Shown here in pieces: positions 48,113 to 59,603 of a stretch of 64,000 nucleotides of DNA (the stretch's first letter is position 1; each line of letters begins with the position of its first letter). The stretch is from an uncultured Chloroflexia bacterium. GTDB lineage: Bacteria > Chloroflexota > Chloroflexia > Thermomicrobiales > UBA6265. Position numbers and translations under genes: made by a program. The notes beneath the pieces are model-generated. The model was given only the letters and a program-made list of their open reading frames with translations, did no database searches and had not been told where the DNA came from. The stretch covers positions 460,909 to 524,908 of the forward strand of contig CAVXMK010000010.1 of NCBI GenBank assembly GCA_963762985.1, read 5' to 3'.

Positions 48113-48911
48113 TCAGTTCCGCTCCACCCGCTCCCCCACCATCGCCCCCGTCATGATCGCCACCGCGTCCTGCATGCTGAAGTTGCGCGGCTCGATGATG
48201 GCAACGCGCCGGCCCAACCGCTGGATGTGGACGCGGTCGGCGACCTCGAAGACCTGGGGCATGTTGTGGCTGATGAGGATGACCGGCAAGCCCCGGTCCC
48301 GCACCTGGCGGATGAGATCCAGCACCATGTGTGATTCCTTGACCCCGAGCGCCGCCGTCGGCTCGTCCATGATGACGACGTGTTGCGCGAACGCGGCGCT
48401 GCGGGCGACCGCGACCCCCTGCCGCTGGCCGCCGGAGAGCGTCTCCACCGCTTGGCTCATGGAGCGAATCCCGATCTTCAGATCCTGCATGTGAGCGTTC
48501 GCCTCCACCCGCATGCGTCGCTTGTCGAGCATGCGGAAGAGCGATCCCAGTGCGCCCTCGCGGCGAATCTCGCGCCCGAGAAAGATGTTCTCCGAAATGT
48601 CGAGCGCCGGGGCCAGCGCCAGGTCCTGGTAGACCGTCTCTATACCGTGCCGCCGCGCGTCGAGTGGTCCTCGGAAATGGACCTGATTGCCGTCGACGAA
48701 AATCTCGCCTTCGTCCGGAATCAGCGCCCCTGACAGCGCCTTGATCAGCGTCGATTTCCCCGCGCCGTTGTCGCCGATGACGGCCAGGATCTCGCCGGGA
48801 TAGAGCTCGAAATCCGCGCCATCGAGCGCCGTCACGTGGCCGTACCGTTTGACCAGACCCCGCGCCTCGATGACGGGAATCGGCTGGTCTGGGTAGATCA
48901 GTGACGGTCAT
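48113..48911 (-). pseudogene. Sugar ABC transporter ATP-binding protein, +1 frameshift near 48893 just after the start
   Basis: The core ORF 48113-48835 has GDNGAGKST (Walker A), LSGGQRQ and IMDEPTAAL. The in-frame upstream residues PDQPIPVIEARGLVKRYGHV have no start codon. The ATG at 48911 overlaps the permease stop (ATGA), gives MTVTDL, and rejoins the core after one extra base. Confidence 0.8.
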
Positions 48912-49909
48912 TGCTGCCTTCGCCGCGCGAGTTGATCGACAGTGACCGCAAGAATGACGAGGATGCCGGTAACCAGGATTTGATACACGGAATCGACCCC
49001 GATGAGCTGGAGGCCGTTGCGAAAAACGCCGACGATCAGCACGCCCACGAGAGTCCCCAGAATGCTGCCGCGGCCACCAAAGAGACTCGTCCCGCCCAGC
49101 ACCACTGCGGTGATGCTGGCCAAGTTGTCCACCTGACCCTCATTGGGGTTTCCCACGTTCGTCCGACCAACGAGGACGAGTGCGGCGATACCATAGAAGA
49201 GTCCGGCCACGGTGTATATGCCGAGCAAGAGCCGCTGGGCATCGATGCCGCTCAGTCGGGCGGCTTCGGGATTGTTCCCGACGGCGTACACGTGGCGGCC
49301 GACGGCCGTAAAGCGCAGCACATACCAGGTGAATAGATAAAGCATGAACATCAACATGGTCGCATAGGGGATGGTGGTCTCCCCAATCACGAACCGGTTG
49401 CCAAGGAACGTGACCGTCTCGGGAACATTTGTCACCGTCTGGTTCTGGGAATAGATGTGCGTGAGGGCGAAGGCAATATTCAGCGTACCCAACGTCACGA
49501 TGAAGGGAGGCAACTGGATGCGCGTGATGAGTCCGCCGTTGAGCGCGCCAAAGGCGGCACACACGCCGACGCCAAGAATGATCGCCACATAGGGGTTGAC
49601 GCCATTGACCACCGCGAGCTTGGTCATGACGATCGAACCGAGGGCCATGACGGCGCCGCACGAAAGGTCGATCCCAGCCGTGAGGATCACCAACGTCTGA
49701 CCAATGGCCAGGATGCCCACGACCATCGACTGCTGAACGACCAGCGAGAGGTTCTGGCCGGTCAGGAACCGGTCGGTTTGGGTCGCGAAGTAGGCGCAGG
49801 CCAGCACGAGCGCGATGAACGGCCCCAGGCTCGCCAGTGGCGCCAAGAGTCCACGAAGCCCGGTATCCAGCCGAGCCGAGGGCTGCTCGACCGTAACGGT
49901 ATCGCCCAT
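48908..49909 (-). CDS. Sugar ABC transporter permease (RbsC/monosaccharide type)
   Basis: 333 aa, multi-pass. GIDLSCGAVMAL, VGRHVYAVGNNPEAARLSGI and VVLGGTSLFGGRGS motifs. Confidence 0.88.
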   Translation of the reverse strand: MGDTVTVEQPSARLDTGLRGLLAPLASLGPFIALVLACAYFATQTDRFLTGQNLSLVVQQSMVVGILAIGQTLVILTAGIDLSCGAVMALGSIVMTKLAVVNGVNPYVAIILGVGVCAAFGALNGGLITRIQLPPFIVTLGTLNIAFALTHIYSQNQTVTNVPETVTFLGNRFVIGETTIPYATMLMFMLYLFTWYVLRFTAVGRHVYAVGNNPEAARLSGIDAQRLLLGIYTVAGLFYGIAALVLVGRTNVGNPNEGQVDNLASITAVVLGGTSLFGGRGSILGTLVGVLIVGVFRNGLQLIGVDSVYQILVTGILVILAVTVDQLARRRQQ

Positions 49910-49928
49910 AGCGAATCCCTGGCAACGG

Positions 49929-49969
49929 GACCGCTACGGATCCGACATCGCGCCGGGTCCGTAGCGGTC
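49929..49969 (-). other. Intercistronic stem-loop between the binding-protein and permease genes (12-bp perfect stem)
   Basis: GACCGCTACGGA (49929-49940) pairs with TCCGTAGCGGTC (49958-49969). Confidence 0.5.
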
Positions 49970-49988
49970 GCGGTTGCCTACGTAGCGA

Positions 49989-57222: not shown

Positions 57223-57313
57223 CGTGTCATTCCGAGGAACGAGGAATCTCTGCGTTCCATAGACAGTACGTGCCCTGAGCCCGAGTTGCTTCGTTCCGTA
57301 CAGCATGACACGC
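57223..57313. repeat. Inverted pair of REP type 2 units (CGTGTCATTCCGAGGAACGAGGAATCTC ... GTACAGCATGACACG)
   Basis: The right unit is the reverse complement form CGTGTCATGCTGTACGGAACGAAGCAAC. The pair lies between the Gfo/Idh/MocA and CoA-transferase genes. Confidence 0.6.
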
Positions 57314-57335
57314 TTTGCGGTGGCGCCTTACCCAG

Positions 57336-58339
57336 TCAATCCACGGCAACCCGGACCGCGCACCCGGTCTCGGCCGCTTCCCGCACCGCCAACGCCATCG
57401 CCAGCGAACGAACACCGTCTTCTCCGCTAGCCGCTGGCTCACCCTCCCCTCGCACCGCGGCGTTGAAGCGCGCCACGGACCGCTCATAGAGGTTGCCATG
57501 CTCGATCGGCACCTGCTCTTCACTGCCGTCGCGCCGCAAGGTGACCGTGCCCACGGGACGCTGCGTCATCACATCCCTGCCGTAGAGCGAGCCGTCCGTG
57601 CCGTGGACCTCGAACCCGGTGTAGGCGTGCCGGCACCGTGAACGCGTCGTGGAACTGAGCCAGCACACCGCCGCGGAAGCGCATCACGCCCATCACGGCG
57701 TCCTCCAACCCGGCTCTGGGCCATCCCCTGGTTGGCCGTCATCGCGGTCACCTCGTCGACCTCGTCGTCGAGCACAAAGCGCAGTGTATCGGCATCGTGA
57801 ACGGTGATATCGAGGATGACCCCGCCTCCCGATTCCGGCCGTTCGATGCGCCAACCCTGCAAATGCGCGGGAAGATAGACGGCATGAAACACCCGCGCCG
57901 CGAGCGGCTGGCCAATGGCGCCGTCGGCAACGAGTTCGCGCATCGCCCGATGCGCGGCGGCGTTCCGCAGATGGTGATTGGTGCCCATGACGACGCCGGC
58001 GGCGCGGCACGCCTCGACCATCGCCCGCGCCCCTTCCAGGGTCAGCGCCAGCGGTTTTTCGCAGAGAACATGCTTGCCGGCAGCCGCCGCCGCCAGCACC
58101 TGCGGCTCGTGCCACTCGTTGGTCGAGCTGATGTAGACCGCGTCGATGTCCGGATCGGCCAGCAGATCATCAACCGTGGCATGGACCTTCGGAATGCCCA
58201 GCTCCGCGGCAAACGCGCCTGCCCGCGCCAGCATCCGAACTCGCCAGGCGACAACCTCACTATCGGGTTGCGCGGAAATGGCCGGCGCCATCCACTCCCG
58301 CCCGATCGTACTCGCCCCAATCAACCCCCACCGCACCAT
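57336..58339 (-). pseudogene. Gfo/Idh/MocA-family NAD(P)-dependent oxidoreductase, two +1 frameshifts (~57713, ~57632)
   Basis: [16 protein letters not shown]...[33 protein letters not shown]... up to [12 protein letters not shown]. Then [26 protein letters not shown]. Then [22 protein letters not shown]...[21 protein letters not shown]...*. The ATG at 58339 lies behind AGAAGAGG. Confidence 0.82.
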
Positions 58340-58376
58340 GCACACCTCTTCTCTCGACTTTCGACTTCAACTCGAC

Positions 58377-59603
58377 TCACTGATAAATGATCACATCCGG
58401 CGACGGCACCAGCGCCAGAATCTCCCGCGCCGCCATGACCGGCACATCCTGCCTGATAGAAAAGCTTGACCCCGGCAAACTCCACCGGTTCGTCACGCAC
58501 CAGGAAGTTGTACACCGCCGTTTTCAGCTCCGGCGCACCATACCCGTCGGCGTCGATCACGAGTTGCACTCCTGGATAGGGCACCAAGCTGCTCTTTGTT
58601 GGTAATCATGTCCTCGCGGAACTGATGCACTACGAGCAATTTGGGCGGAATCCCGTGCGTCGCCGAGATCTCCGCCAGCACCTGCTGTGCGTAGGTAATG
58701 CTCTCTGCCGTCACGGACCCAATGTACTCGCCCGGGATTTGCCCCTCCGCGACGGCGAACTCCGGATCGATGGCCAGATGCACGTGGGGGAAAGCCAGCA
58801 AATCGCGCACTTTTTCGATCTCGCTCGCCACCGTTCCCCGCCCGAGCTGAAGATCGAGGATGACCAAATGCCCGTTAGCCGCGGCGTAGTCGATGTAGGT
58901 CGTCAGCGTCTCCCGCGAGGTGTCGAGGATGTAGGTACCGTCGAACGCCGGGGTCCCGCTGGGCCACCGTGGCGATGAGCTCGAACGCCGGCACCACCGG
59001 CCGCGAGGGATCGGCCGCCGCATAGTTCGCGGCTTCTATCTCCAGCAACGCCGCCACCTCGTCGATGGCGAGCTCCCCGACGATCCCCATCGCCGGATCG
59101 TGCGGGTGCCCGTAGTAGCTCACGATCCGGTACTCCGGCAGAAGCGGGCCATCCGGCGGAGACGCCAACGGAGCCGTCGCCGGCGCCATGGCCAACTCCG
59201 GCGGTTGCGCGAGCTGAGGAGGAGGAGCCGCGGCGAACCCGTCACCGTCCACGTCAGACGCGGCTTCCACCGCGGCGACCGATGCCGTCGGCGCCGAGGT
59301 CGGCTCGGCGGGTGCCGCCATCGTCGGTTCAATGAGCACTGCTGGCGGCACATTGGTCCGAGACTGGGTCGGTACGCCGCTGGGAACCGAACCACTGCCC
59401 AGGAGCGTGGCCAACGCCACCGCAAGCGAAACGACCACCATGAACCCCGCGCTCATGGAGCGTTCGTCGGGCACCCAGGCCGGCAAGCGCAGGCGCAGCG
59501 GTTTTCGTGATGCCGGCGGCGGAGCATCAGCGGCAAGCCACTCCGACGAAAACGGCCGGGGCCCGTCCGGGCGCGAAGCGTGGGATGCCATCCGCCCTGG
59601 CAT
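58377..59603 (-). pseudogene. Membrane-anchored/secreted conserved protein of unknown function, three +1 frameshifts (~58954, ~58586, ~58452)
   Basis: TM segment MSAGFMVVVSLAVALATLLG, a Pro/Ala-rich linker, then YRIVSYYGHPHDPAMGIVGEL...PAFELIATVAQR / TPAFDGTYILDTSRETLTTYIDYAAANGHLVILDLQLGRG...HLAIDPEF...LLVVHQFREDMITNKEQL / VPYPGVQLVIDADGYGAPELKTAVYNFLV...GVKLFYQ / QDVPVMAAREILALVPSPDVIIYQ*, across four frames. Confidence 0.6.

Follow-up and report, generated by a model that had tools for sequence, protein, structure and literature searches.

A Thermomicrobiales operon tentatively assigned to CoA-dependent catabolism of 1,5-anhydro-D-fructose-type sugars

Organisation of the nine-gene locus

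The window, by which we mean the whole 64-kb stretch of DNA analysed here, carries nine consecutive genes, all on the minus strand (Table 1). The initial annotation had read them as one unit with these identities and in this order; identities and order are confirmed by Pfam searches and by tblastn with intact orthologues, and the genes look like a single unit. Both ATGA overlaps on the minus strand are real, one joining the GMC stop to the crotonase ATG and the other the permease stop to the ATPase ATG. Junctions within the set include overlaps of -26, -4 and -4 nt, with the other gaps measuring 31-150 nt. The transporter genes may have their own promoter at the promoter-like site upstream of the binding-protein gene, although the consensus scan that located it found two such sites against 1.2 expected, which is not significant. 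Frameshifts break eight of the nine genes, the permease alone being free of them.

Table 1. Features of the locus and positions of frame breaks, in window coordinates (AFR, 1,5-anhydro-D-fructose reductase).
Feature	Position	Strand	Basis	Frame breaks
Anchored protein, no assigned function	58377-59603	-	tblastn, four frame segments	three +1 frameshifts, near 58947, 58588, 58454
Gfo/Idh/MocA oxidoreductase, AFR orthologue	57336-58345	-	Pfam GFO_IDH_MocA N and C domains	near 57716, 57632; compensated pair 58246/58226
Fused family-I (YdiF-type) CoA-transferase	55493-57218	-	Pfam CoA_trans	four +1 insertions, 56168, 55949, 55870, 55757
Gluconate_2-dh3 (gamma-like) and GMC fusion	53243-55518	-	Pfam PF13618, PF00732, PF05199	two +1 insertions at N-terminus, 55425, 55323; catalytic body intact
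Crotonase (enoyl-CoA hydratase/dehydratase)	52462-53246	-	Pfam ECH_1, E 1e-42	52712, 52644; local +3 garble 53238-53202
GH88-family protein	51184-52311	-	tblastn, three segments	two, near 52185, 51788
Promoter-like site TTGACC-17-TATGAT, GH88/binding-protein gap	51131-51159	-	consensus scan	
CUT2-type periplasmic sugar-binding protein	49989-~51076	-	Pfam Peripla_BP_4, two fragments	at least two, near 50880, 50480 (three-frame view)
CUT2-type ABC permease, BPD_transp_2	48908-49909	-	Pfam PF02653, E 1e-40	none
Single-domain ABC ATPase	48113-48911	-	Pfam ABC_tran, E 1.6e-30	one, directly 3' of start codon (three-frame view)

The binding protein has a signal peptide, and its two Pfam fragments cover profile positions 16-149 and 148-256. 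The ATPase is 46% identical to the CUT2 ATPase beside a variant cluster in Embleya, and the CUT1 binding protein of related clusters best matches the Thermus glucose-binding protein (PDB 2b3b, E 3e-84). The cluster transporters are of monosaccharide type, CUT2 here and CUT1 in relatives. In the anchored protein a linker rich in Pro and Ala joins an N-terminal transmembrane helix to a TIM-barrel-like domain, for which the AF2 model has eight beta/alpha repeats with core pLDDT of 85-95; Foldseek returned generic TIM-barrel matches only (TM 0.35-0.48), and there were zero Pfam or NCBIfam matches. It has 456 homologues, the best 120 of which are hypothetical or unnamed proteins, with those named by organism all from Chloroflexota; it occurs only in Thermomicrobiales among the matches listed, and stands outside the core that is conserved across phyla.

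Enzyme families and conservation of the gene set

The repaired Gfo protein matches characterised AFR, both PDB 2glx (residues 3-330, 458 bits, E 1.7e-136) and 4koa, with the next family reaching only E 1e-39. It is 65% identical over its full length to the annotated AFR of S. meliloti, and the EKP and DITVHDAD blocks are conserved. On this sequence evidence we assign it as an orthologue of 1,5-anhydro-D-fructose reductase (EC 1.1.1.292), which points to 1,5-anhydro sugars, hexoses that lack the anomeric oxygen, as the substrate.

The CoA-transferase orthologue matches YdiF (PDB 2ahu) with an E value of 6e-111. Transferases of the YdiF type are known to act on short-chain acids, and a literature search turned up no earlier case of a sugar acid bound to CoA as a thioester. 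The closest structure to the crotonase is 3-hydroxypropionyl-CoA dehydratase (5zai, E 2e-57), and both catalytic Glu motifs, GGGLELAL and FAMPETKIG, are kept, as they are in 57 of 58 cluster members. The GMC fusion is cytoplasmic, its N-terminal sequence has no twin-arginine motif, and no cytochrome c partner is found among the genes named around it. In relatives it is about 753 residues long, with hundreds of 753-residue homologues at 64-93% identity; the solved structures closest to it are those of fructose dehydrogenase (7w2j) and FAD-GDH (6a2u), and we propose that it is a putative C6-alcohol oxidase or dehydrogenase. Gamma-fused and choline-dehydrogenase-like GMC proteins are mutually exclusive in variant clusters. 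For the aldehyde dehydrogenase (ALDH) of related clusters, the best structure is a generic NAD-dependent ALDH (3u4j), followed by L-sorbosone dehydrogenase (E 7e-146).

The GH88 protein, recovered in three tblastn segments, is 75-86% identical to GH88 of locus L001 and matches the UGL of Bacillus sp. GL1 (1vd5, E 1.4e-42). Residues D88, D149, N153, H193, Q211, W219, R221, W225, Y338 and H339 are invariant in all 44 cluster GH88 proteins compared, and W134 is replaced by Phe in 43. Identity within the cluster proteins is at least 53%, compared with 31-34% to eight other GH88-type plasmid hits (seven annotated GH88 or ugl). They form a separate clade, with a 4,5-unsaturated 1,5-anhydro-uronate as predicted substrate; as this is not a glycoside, the enzyme would work as a ring-opening hydratase.

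Neighbourhood comparison, the check put forward with the initial annotation, showed that the gene set is indeed conserved elsewhere. A core of Gfo, CoA-transferase, gamma-fused GMC, crotonase and GH88 is syntenic in Thermomicrobiales, Verrucomicrobiota, Streptomyces, Arthrobacter, Trueperaceae and Caldilineaceae, and these versions usually gain ALDH, a second GMC and LacI, with KDG kinase and Eda aldolase frequent additions too. The order Gfo-CoAT-gammaGMC-ECH-(ALDH)-GH88-ABC-GMC2 is kept in at least five phyla: Chloroflexota, Verrucomicrobiota, Actinomycetota and Deinococcota share it, and Acidobacteriota (locus L038) have only part of the set. Among 46 species-representative loci whose sequence extends far enough to either side of the GMC gene, CoA-transferase, crotonase and GH88 occur together in 25; ten have none of the partner genes, and the gamma-GMC family is also found in unrelated contexts. 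Six Thermomicrobiales loci lack the CoA-transferase. Co-localisation is far above chance expectation. The earlier remark that KdgK and KdgA are missing holds for this window, where ALDH, second GMC, KdgK and Eda are all absent, but not for the cluster at large, since KDG-kinase-like and Eda-like genes lie inside it in Verrucomicrobiota, Arthrobacter and Embleya. The Embleya variant is compact, an ALDH-CoAT-ECH-GH88-Eda-KdgK-GMC set with a CUT2 transporter.

Annotated AFR genes of S. meliloti, Rhizobium and Microvirga lie in the arrangement LacI-AFR-CoAT-ECH-ALDH-ABC-GMC-SDR-GMC, adjoined by a DapA-family gene and glycerate kinase. The CoA-transferase beside S. meliloti AFR is 64% identical to that of the window; in the Sinorhizobium operon the crotonase is 41-48% identical to the window's, the ALDH shares 51-54% identity with that of the Arthrobacter cluster, and the 505-residue GMC shares 46% with the second GMC found in Thermomicrobiales relatives. 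Neither GH88 nor gamma-GMC is present in these Alphaproteobacterial operons, and ring opening there must differ. According to reviews the aerobic route past AFR is unidentified (PMC12441222); for S. morelense, hydroxylation of anhydromannitol at C1 by an unidentified P450-like enzyme, giving mannose, has been proposed (PMC12441222).

A possible route and its alternatives

Our preferred reading, held tentatively and with somewhat more doubt than confidence, is that the locus is the Thermomicrobiales version of a widespread, uncharacterised operon through which 1,5-anhydro-D-fructose-type sugars are catabolised by a CoA-dependent route. The substrate and order of steps that we infer begin with a sugar that would be brought in by the monosaccharide-type ABC transporter, after which the AFR orthologue would reduce 1,5-anhydrofructose to 1,5-anhydro-D-mannitol. 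Past AFR, the gamma-fused GMC flavoprotein would oxidise the C6 hydroxyl to the aldehyde, and an L-sorbosone-dehydrogenase-like ALDH, encoded in most other phyla but not in this window, would yield 1,5-anhydro-D-mannuronate. The YdiF-type transferase would form the C6 thioester, and the crotonase would eliminate the hydroxyl at C4, in the beta position relative to the thioester, leaving a 4,5-unsaturated enol ether, with CoA handed on to the next substrate molecule as by CaiB/CaiD. Hydration of the enol ether by GH88 would open the hemiketal to 2-keto-3-deoxy-D-gluconate (KDG), the product being KDG itself because C1 is a CH2. The last steps would fall to KDG kinase and Eda aldolase, whose genes belong to the cluster in other phyla, and the Embleya variant has precisely the genes that the route from anhydromannitol to pyruvate and glyceraldehyde-3-phosphate would require. 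By Fischer analysis a manno configuration at C2/C3 leads to D-erythro KDG and a gluco configuration to the L-threo isomer; the requirement for manno would explain a manno-specific reductase in the operon. Several observations weigh against this reading: the window has no ALDH, second GMC, KdgK or Eda; six Thermomicrobiales loci do without the CoA-transferase; ten of the 46 loci carry gamma-GMC with none of its partners; Alphaproteobacterial AFR operons have neither GH88 nor gamma-GMC; the S. morelense proposal leads to mannose instead; the literature search yielded no parallel for the thioester; and characterised GH88 enzymes use L-threo substrates. An oxidative CoA-dependent branch, as the initial annotation had suggested, fits the evidence; evidence for its other suggestion, a 3-keto-glycoside route, was not found in this analysis. 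No published description of the proposed route was found in a literature search, and it would supply the later steps of a pathway of which only the first enzyme has been known since 2006.

The same C6 oxidation, CoA-dependent 4,5-elimination and GH88 cleavage might instead act on another C1-blocked hexose, with the AFR-like enzyme working late and in a KduD-like manner, an alternative that we regard as unlikely. The substrate could then be a small glycoside with an alkyl or aryl group, 1,5-anhydroglucitol (gluco entry) or an osone, and the reductase would act on an open-chain diketo acid. On stereochemical grounds 2,5-diketo-3-deoxygluconate reduced by an AFR-type enzyme would likewise yield the D-erythro product; Bradyrhizobium plasmids carry the second GMC and AFR as an independent pair accompanied by an MFS transporter; and characterised GH88 enzymes prefer L-threo (gluco-derived) substrates, the active site being fully conserved in the cluster. 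Against this, the Gfo identity is end to end with an enzyme characterised on 1,5-anhydrofructose, and Embleya has KdgK and Eda but no reductase, as fits ring opening straight to KDG. The resemblance of the binding protein to glucose-binding proteins also leaves little room for an aglycone.

Rather less probable still is that GH88 takes the first step, on unsaturated uronide oligosaccharides that lyases release and the cell imports, after which the oxidoreductases and CoA enzymes process either 4-deoxy-5-hexosulose uronate or the sugar set free, by a route other than KduI/KduD. In favour of this, the cluster GH88 is genuinely homologous to UGL and keeps its active site intact, the operon has no KduI/KduD-type genes, as reported earlier, and the KdgK and Eda of related clusters are the usual end of unsaturated-uronate catabolism. 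The transporters, however, are of monosaccharide type, polysaccharide lyases and sulfatases are absent from the recurrent gene families, named by homology or Pfam, of 86 loci, and the cluster GH88 proteins are distant from the plasmid GH88-type hits. Furthermore, the AFR-CoAT-ECH-ALDH-GMC core occurs without GH88 in Alphaproteobacteria, so the CoA and oxidoreductase genes are not GH88 accessories. The unsaturated heparin, chondroitin, ulvan or gellan disaccharides put forward initially are thus unlikely substrates, given the monosaccharide transporters, the lack of a recurrent lyase and the AFR orthology.

It is very improbable that the operon is decaying into pseudogenes and has no function in this organism. 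Comparison with an 88%-identical JGI contig revealed about 18 uncompensated single-base insertions in 11.5 kb, and the neighbouring FolC, sigma and anti-sigma genes have no frameshifts. These insertions, however, are +1 additions of arbitrary bases outside homopolymers, and neither repeat slippage nor deletions. With them removed, the unknown protein, Gfo, CoA-transferase, GMC and crotonase have 90-92% protein identity to their orthologues in locus L005, zero in-frame stops and dN/dS values of 0.10-0.17, similar to or lower than the 0.22 of intact FolC. Essential genes are broken likewise: enolase (16183-17435) is split over three frames, and PheT in the window is apparently split by the same kind of break. 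The low dN/dS, the lack of in-frame stops after repair and the broken enolase and PheT identify the operon frameshifts as technical sequence errors and not gene decay. Least credible of all is a chance adjacency of unrelated units (one module for short-chain acyl-CoA, another of sugar oxidoreductases, and GH88 plus a transporter), since the varying transporter type, the weak promoter-like site and the loci without CoA-transferase are outweighed by a gene order common to four phyla, overlapping coding regions in the core and the contiguous CoAT-ECH-GH88-Eda-KdgK of Embleya.

Comparison with known systems

The Sinorhizobium AFR system resembles the operon in that AFR is flanked by orthologues of the CoA-transferase, crotonase, ALDH and second GMC, but has a choline-dehydrogenase-like GMC, SDR, DapA-family gene and glycerate kinase in place of GH88 and gamma-GMC. 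GMC and ALDH co-occur throughout the clusters, as in the sorbose/sorbosone dehydrogenase and BetA/BetB pairs that convert CH2OH to COOH, and variant clusters use a choline-dehydrogenase-like GMC; here, unlike in those pairs, the GMC is fused to a gamma-subunit-like domain. In the CaiB/CaiD system a beta-hydroxy acid is dehydrated via a transient CoA thioester and the transferase hands CoA to the next substrate. The operon would likewise combine a CoA-transferase and crotonase dehydration with CoA recycling, but its transferase is of family I (YdiF-like) and not family III, and the acid proposed here would be a cyclic one derived from a sugar and bearing an alkoxy group at the alpha position.

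Cluster GH88 proteins share with UGL (1vd5 and streptococcal UGL) the family and the catalytic and carboxylate-binding residues, and the known GH88 mechanism, hydration of a 4,5-enol ether beside a carboxylate, is the chemistry proposed here. They differ in lacking a lyase or KduI/KduD context, in the W134 to Phe replacement and in the probable L-erythro configuration of the substrate; characterised GH88 enzymes use L-threo unsaturated uronides, whereas the manno route would require L-erythro. With the canonical unsaturated-uronate route (KduI/KduD or DhuI/DhuD, KdgK, KdgA), related clusters have the KDG-kinase-like and Eda-like genes in common but not the KduI/KduD-type isomerase/reductase pair, which would be unneeded because ring opening would give KDG directly. 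Finally, the substrate class of the proposed route is also that of anaerobic 'anhydroglycolysis', in which 1,5-anhydroglucitol and 1,5-anhydromannitol are taken up by PTS and handled by the glycyl-radical YbiW/PflD (PMC13450708, PMC12441222). That pathway is radical-based and oxygen-sensitive and operates on 6-phosphates, whereas the route proposed here would use flavin, NAD and CoA and would be compatible with oxygen.

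Gene content and integrity of the operon

The window has a G+C content of 64-72% along its whole length, and its closest relatives are Thermomicrobiales (Chloroflexota) assemblies. A Pfam scan of the minus-strand reading-frame fragments in the operon detected an ABC ATPase, BPD_transp_2, Peripla_BP_4, a weak GH88 match, a crotonase (ECH), a fusion of Gluconate_2-dh3 and GMC domains (gamma-GMC), a CoA-transferase (CoAT) and a Gfo/Idh/MocA protein (Gfo), the first gene, for an anchored protein, matching no family. The nine-gene order proposed in the initial annotation was borne out, with the six upstream genes placed in order by tblastn with intact orthologues and the transporter genes found by Pfam; the two overlaps it described both read ATGA on the minus strand. 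The remaining junctions are -26 nt or 31-150 nt. The location on one strand, the short or overlapping junctions and a gene order kept across phyla all point to an operon. A weak promoter-like site lies upstream of the transporter genes, and a promoter and terminator scan gave a site count no higher than the chance expectation.

The reading frame is split in every gene of the operon but the permease. A GC3 frame plot alone was too noisy to locate the frameshifts, and codon-score segmentation and homology mapping were used instead. Alignment to L005, a JGI contig 88% identical to the region, placed single-base insertions in the window (Table), the inserted bases being arbitrary, with no homopolymer extension. 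Once these bases are taken out, the proteins of the five genes checked against L005 are 90-92% identical to their orthologues there, with dN/dS of 0.10-0.17 and zero in-frame stops; for FolC, an intact neighbour, dN/dS is 0.22. The breaks extend beyond the operon, to an enolase gene in which three successive frame segments match consecutive parts of the Enolase_N and Enolase_C profiles and apparently to the N-terminal part of PheT, and this, together with the arbitrary inserted bases, indicates that the frameshifts are sequence errors. Pseudogenisation of the operon was rejected because the inserted bases are arbitrary, selection appears normal once they are corrected, and the enolase gene is broken likewise. 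We treat the operon as intact in the organism, leaving a small probability that the decay is real.

Insertion-type errors affect the window as a whole, so ORF-based annotation there needs frameshift-tolerant methods. One plus-strand region of 72% G+C, in which a coding-like signal hops across three frames and the fragments have no Pfam match, is a gene with many frameshifts or else a sequence of low complexity. Divergent from the operon lies a block free of frameshifts, encoding a FolC-like Mur ligase, an ECF sigma factor and a zf-HC2 anti-sigma factor. About a dozen Thermomicrobiales loci show synteny of this block with the operon, and a Lon protease is added in relatives. Three genes downstream of the operon, for an O-methyltransferase, a 504-aa protein and a DUF1269 protein, show no synteny with it in relatives.

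Table. Positions of features in the window and in related loci
Feature	Sequence	Position	Strand	Detail
Nine-gene operon	window	48113-59603	-	
Single-base insertions (among others)	window	58947, 58588, 58454, 57716, 57632, 56168, 55949, 55870, 55757, 55425, 55323, 52712, 52644		from alignment to L005
Gfo gene	window	57336-58345	-	
Enolase gene	window	16183-17435	-	
PheT gene	window	19019-21478	+	
Frame-hopping region	window	36800-38100	+	
FolC-like/sigma/anti-sigma block	window	59876-63072	+	
O-methyltransferase	window	43243-44391	+	Methyltransf_2 and dimerisation domain
504-aa ORF	window	44709-46223	+	no family
DUF1269 membrane protein	window	46840-47469	+	
Accessory gene	L003	19414-19965		DUF1684 or HbpS/GlcG-like
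Accessory gene	L084	20059-20649		DUF1684 or HbpS/GlcG-like
Accessory gene	L091	9701-10177		DUF1684 or HbpS/GlcG-like
AFR-like gene pair	L088, Bradyrhizobium barranii plasmid pBb323S2d	100873-103539		
S. meliloti AFR locus	L087/L089, CP090106.1	3656626-3672649		

Conservation of the gene cluster

Full-length homologues of the gamma-GMC fusion, ~753 aa long, number in the hundreds. Scanning one genome per species gave 80 loci, whose ORFs were compared by tblastn and all-against-all clustering. In 25 of the 46 loci whose flanks are long enough in both directions, CoAT, ECH and GH88 occur together, and 21 of these 25 also carry the Gfo gene; the combination singled out in the initial annotation is thus a recurrent neighbourhood. 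Thermomicrobiales contigs with gamma-GMC have the order anchored protein-Gfo-CoAT-gammaGMC-ECH-GH88, followed by a CUT1-type sugar ABC transporter, a second GMC (GMC2) and DUF1684, whereas the window has a CUT2 transporter and lacks both GMC2 and DUF1684. The anchored protein is restricted to Thermomicrobiales. The order LacI-Gfo-CoAT-gammaGMC-ECH-ALDH-GH88-SBP-permease-permease-GMC2 is found in Verrucomicrobiota (Chthoniobacterales), Streptomyces and Arthrobacter, and the CoAT-gammaGMC-ECH-GH88 core in Trueperaceae and Caldilineaceae, while one Acidobacteriota locus has only part of the set. An Embleya variant reads ALDH-CoAT-ECH-GH88-Eda-KdgK-GMC (choline-DH-like), with a CUT2 transporter, an IclR regulator and no 1,5-anhydro-D-fructose reductase (AFR). 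The CoA-transferase is missing from six Thermomicrobiales loci. Related clusters frequently also carry a PfkB kinase and an Eda-type aldolase; ALDH, GMC2, the KDG (2-keto-3-deoxy-D-gluconate) kinase KdgK and the aldolase Eda all have no copy in the 64-kb window.

Members of the gamma-GMC family also stand in other contexts, beside genes for a family III CoA-transferase, an acyl-CoA dehydrogenase and SDR proteins (Rubrobacter, Haloarcula). Six loci (L026, L041, L045, L046, L052 from Haloarcula, and L065) carry close gamma-GMC homologues without GH88, next to genes for ALDH, SDR, family III CoA-transferase, acyl-CoA dehydrogenase, crotonase, IclR, acyl-CoA synthetase and CUT2 transporters; they represent a second uncharacterised cluster of GMC, ALDH and CoA genes, present even in an archaeon. 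Among accessory genes, DUF1684 follows GMC2 in 9 Thermomicrobiales loci, and in Arthrobacter and Microvirga the cluster repeatedly has an HbpS/GlcG-like 'haem-degrading' protein nearby.

Enzymes of the operon

The Gfo protein matches AFR of known structure over its full length (2glx, 458 bits, E 1.7e-136, residues 3-330 against 2-328; 4koa, E 1.3e-135, end to end), the next-best family scoring 1e-39. It is 65% identical to the Sinorhizobium meliloti AFR, and all Gfo proteins of the clusters fall between 46 and 65%. In the alignment with 2glx, CEKPLA and DITVHDAD match residue for residue; we take the EKP and DxxxH blocks to hold the catalytic Lys, Asp and His, and GASTIA to be the dinucleotide motif, from the AFR structure paper. 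This orthologue-level match to a characterised enzyme (EC 1.1.1.292) predicts NADPH-dependent reduction of 1,5-anhydrofructose to 1,5-anhydromannitol. Assignment as a levoglucosan dehydrogenase (NCBIfam, 97 bits against a cut-off of 650) or a glycoside 3-dehydrogenase (30-51 against 650-750 bits) was rejected. The nucleotide motif of the window's protein reads GASTIG, its last residue being Gly in place of the Ala of the Sinorhizobium enzyme. Since an A13G change has reportedly been engineered in AFR for NADH acceptance, the Thermomicrobiales enzyme may use NADH naturally.

The annotated S. meliloti AFR and its Rhizobium and Microvirga counterparts lie in operons of the form LacI-AFR-CoAT-ECH-ALDH-ABC-GMC (505 aa)-SDR-GMC (551 aa, choline-DH-like), adjoined by a glycerate kinase and a divergent DapA-family gene. 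The window's CoA-transferase and crotonase are 64% and 41-48% identical to their Sinorhizobium counterparts, the Arthrobacter cluster ALDH is 51-54% identical to the Sinorhizobium ALDH, and Thermomicrobiales GMC2 is 46% identical to the 505-aa GMC. By these identities AFR-CoAT-ECH-ALDH-GMC2 is a core held in common with an organism in which AFR function is established.

The S. meliloti record is labelled pSymB, and at 3.7 Mb and with ndvB and leuB it looks like the chromosome. Gene order suggests that SMc04396 is probably the binding protein of this AFR operon, on the assumption that ndvB is SMc04382 and leuB SMc04405. Expression of smc04396 is reported to be induced by dextrin (PMC4960864, citing Mauchline 2006). 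On the Bradyrhizobium barranii plasmid, an AFR-like gene 65% identical to that of the window has just a GMC2-like oxidoreductase and an MFS transporter as partners, with IS elements around them; the same gene occurs on about ten other Bradyrhizobium plasmids, and the pair may be a mobile module interconverting 1,5-anhydroglucitol, 1,5-anhydrofructose and 1,5-anhydromannitol.

In Pfam the frameshifts hold the window's GH88 fragment, taken by itself, to E 3e-4, short of the gathering cut-off. That it is a mis-call was ruled out by matching to solved structures and by an active-site check. The intact orthologue from the related locus L001 matches 1vd5 (E 1.4e-42, residues 30-366), an unsaturated glucuronyl hydrolase (UGL), which marks the protein as a genuine UGL homologue, and precomputed PF07470 matches on the orthologues place them in the (alpha/alpha)6 family. 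D88, D149, N153, H193, Q211, W219, R221, W225, Y338 and H339 are invariant in all 44 cluster GH88 proteins, the repaired window sequence included, and W134 is replaced by Phe in 43 of them. In this numbering, that of the Bacillus UGL, D88 and D149 are presumably the catalytic Asp pair and R221 the carboxylate-binding Arg, as in the UGL literature. Within the clade identity is at least 53%, against only 31-34% to the other GH88-type plasmid matches, most of them annotated GH88 or ugl. Characterised GH88 enzymes accept the L-threo configuration.

The CoA-transferase is YdiF-like (2ahu, E 6e-111, residues 2-490), and the repaired protein shows an IEQG motif, a candidate site for the catalytic glutamate, Glu333 in YdiF. 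The crotonase (ECH_1, E 1e-42) has 3-hydroxypropionyl-CoA dehydratase as its best structural relative; the window carries both catalytic Glu motifs, GGGxE as GGGLELAL and PE as FAMPETKIG, and both Glu residues are kept in 57 of 58 cluster members. No locus of our sample carried gamma-GMC together with the choline-DH-like GMC, which suggests that the two do the same job. The ALDH of clusters in other phyla has 3u4j, a generic NAD-dependent ALDH, as its best solved relative and L-sorbosone dehydrogenase, a sugar-aldehyde enzyme, as its second. The attached kinase is best matched by KDG/KDGal kinase models and the aldolase by the Eda family, both with scores at or below curated cut-offs. The CUT1 binding protein of relatives best matches a Thermus glucose/galactose-binding protein.

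A candidate route and its relation to known systems

The cluster most likely serves to degrade 1,5-anhydro sugars aerobically to KDG, along a route not yet described. We regard the substrate class as probable, if some way from assured; for the full mechanism our confidence falls below an even chance. In sorbose/sorbosone and choline/betaine-aldehyde oxidation, a GMC and an ALDH together turn a primary alcohol into an acid, and such a pair would here oxidise the primary alcohol of the 1,5-anhydro sugar. The C6 carboxyl of a hexopyranuronic acid has the C4 hydroxyl in the beta position. The CoA thioester of the acid would then be a 3-hydroxyacyl-CoA, open to dehydration by the crotonase, with CoA recycled by the transferase in the same logic as CaiB/CaiD; the crotonase would thus perform the 4,5-elimination otherwise carried out on uronates by polysaccharide lyases. 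The product would be a 4,5-unsaturated enol ether beside a carboxylate, the motif hydrated by GH88 enzymes. As a 1,5-anhydro sugar has no aglycone, hydration at C5 would open the ring to HOCH2-CHOH-CHOH-CH2-CO-COOH, the 'glycoside hydrolase' working on a non-glycoside as a ring-opening hydratase. By Fischer analysis the manno configuration at C2/C3 would give the D-erythro product, which is KDG, and the gluco configuration 2-keto-3-deoxy-L-galactonate; AFR being manno-selective, the reductase would have a clear role. The net result would be isomerisation of 1,5-anhydromannuronate to KDG by dehydration and rehydration. GMC2 could feed in 1,5-anhydroglucitol by oxidation at C2, and KdgK and Eda would complete the route, or, in Alphaproteobacteria, a DapA-type aldolase, ALDH and glycerate kinase.

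The pattern of modules present or missing among the variants fits this scheme. Weighing against it are the lack of ALDH, GMC2, KdgK and Eda in the window, the six Thermomicrobiales loci that have no CoA-transferase, the L-threo configuration accepted by characterised GH88 enzymes and the gamma-GMC homologues in other contexts. The steps after AFR are inferred. That at least five phyla share the whole sequence, from CoA-thioester sugar acid through crotonase 4,5-elimination to GH88 ring opening giving KDG in one step, is a tentative proposal, rather less probable than otherwise.

Our literature search found no paper linking GH88 with a CoA-transferase and crotonase, none naming a uronyl-CoA and none linking anhydro sugars to CoA enzymes. 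To our knowledge, the question of what follows AFR when bacteria catabolise anhydrofructose has stood since the 2006 description of that enzyme, and the operon supplies a complete enzyme-by-enzyme hypothesis for the route beyond it. If the scheme is true, carbohydrate catabolism would gain its first sugar-acid CoA thioester, and with it CoA-thioester chemistry, while GH88 would gain a new non-glycosidase function, with a bearing on CAZy-based annotation of soil genomes. The scheme would also supply the missing aerobic route for 1,5-anhydroglucitol, 1,5-anhydromannitol and 1,5-anhydrofructose, and explain a gene cluster that is common among soil Chloroflexota, Verrucomicrobiota and Actinomycetota. 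Should the hypothesis fail, the cluster is still among the more widely conserved carbohydrate operons without known function.

Reviews of 2025 and 2026 (including PMC12441222) give two routes only: the anaerobic glycyl-radical YbiW/PflD system and the S. morelense proposal, in which AFR is followed by an unidentified P450-like C1 hydroxylase. They state that an aerobic 1,5-anhydroglucitol route has yet to be described, and according to the 2025 review an oxygen-tolerant enzyme system might be useful to lower 1,5-anhydroglucitol in patients with GSD-Ib or G6PC3-deficiency neutropenia (PMC12441222). The Alphaproteobacterial AFR operons differ from the cluster in having no GH88, so ring opening is not universally by this enzyme. 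Three-subunit membrane-bound flavoprotein dehydrogenases (gluconate 2-DH, fructose DH) have a separate Tat-signal small subunit and a cytochrome c, whereas here the gamma-like domain and the GMC form one polypeptide whose N-terminal sequence shows no twin-arginine motif, and no cytochrome c gene is found among the named genes and recurrent families of related loci.

The initial annotation had envisaged a non-canonical, oxidative, CoA-dependent route, which agrees with our reading; its lyase-derived disaccharide substrate does not. The context argues against 4,5-unsaturated glucuronides from polysaccharide lyases as the GH88 substrate, because the transporters are of monosaccharide type and the recurrent families include no lyase. 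The canonical unsaturated-uronate pathway (KduI/KduD with KdgK/KdgA) would have a KduD-type SDR, KdgK and KdgA near the cluster; tblastn with SDR, KdgK-like, Eda-like and DapA-like queries gave no match in the 64-kb window, and KdgK-like and Eda-like genes are present in the related clusters of other phyla.
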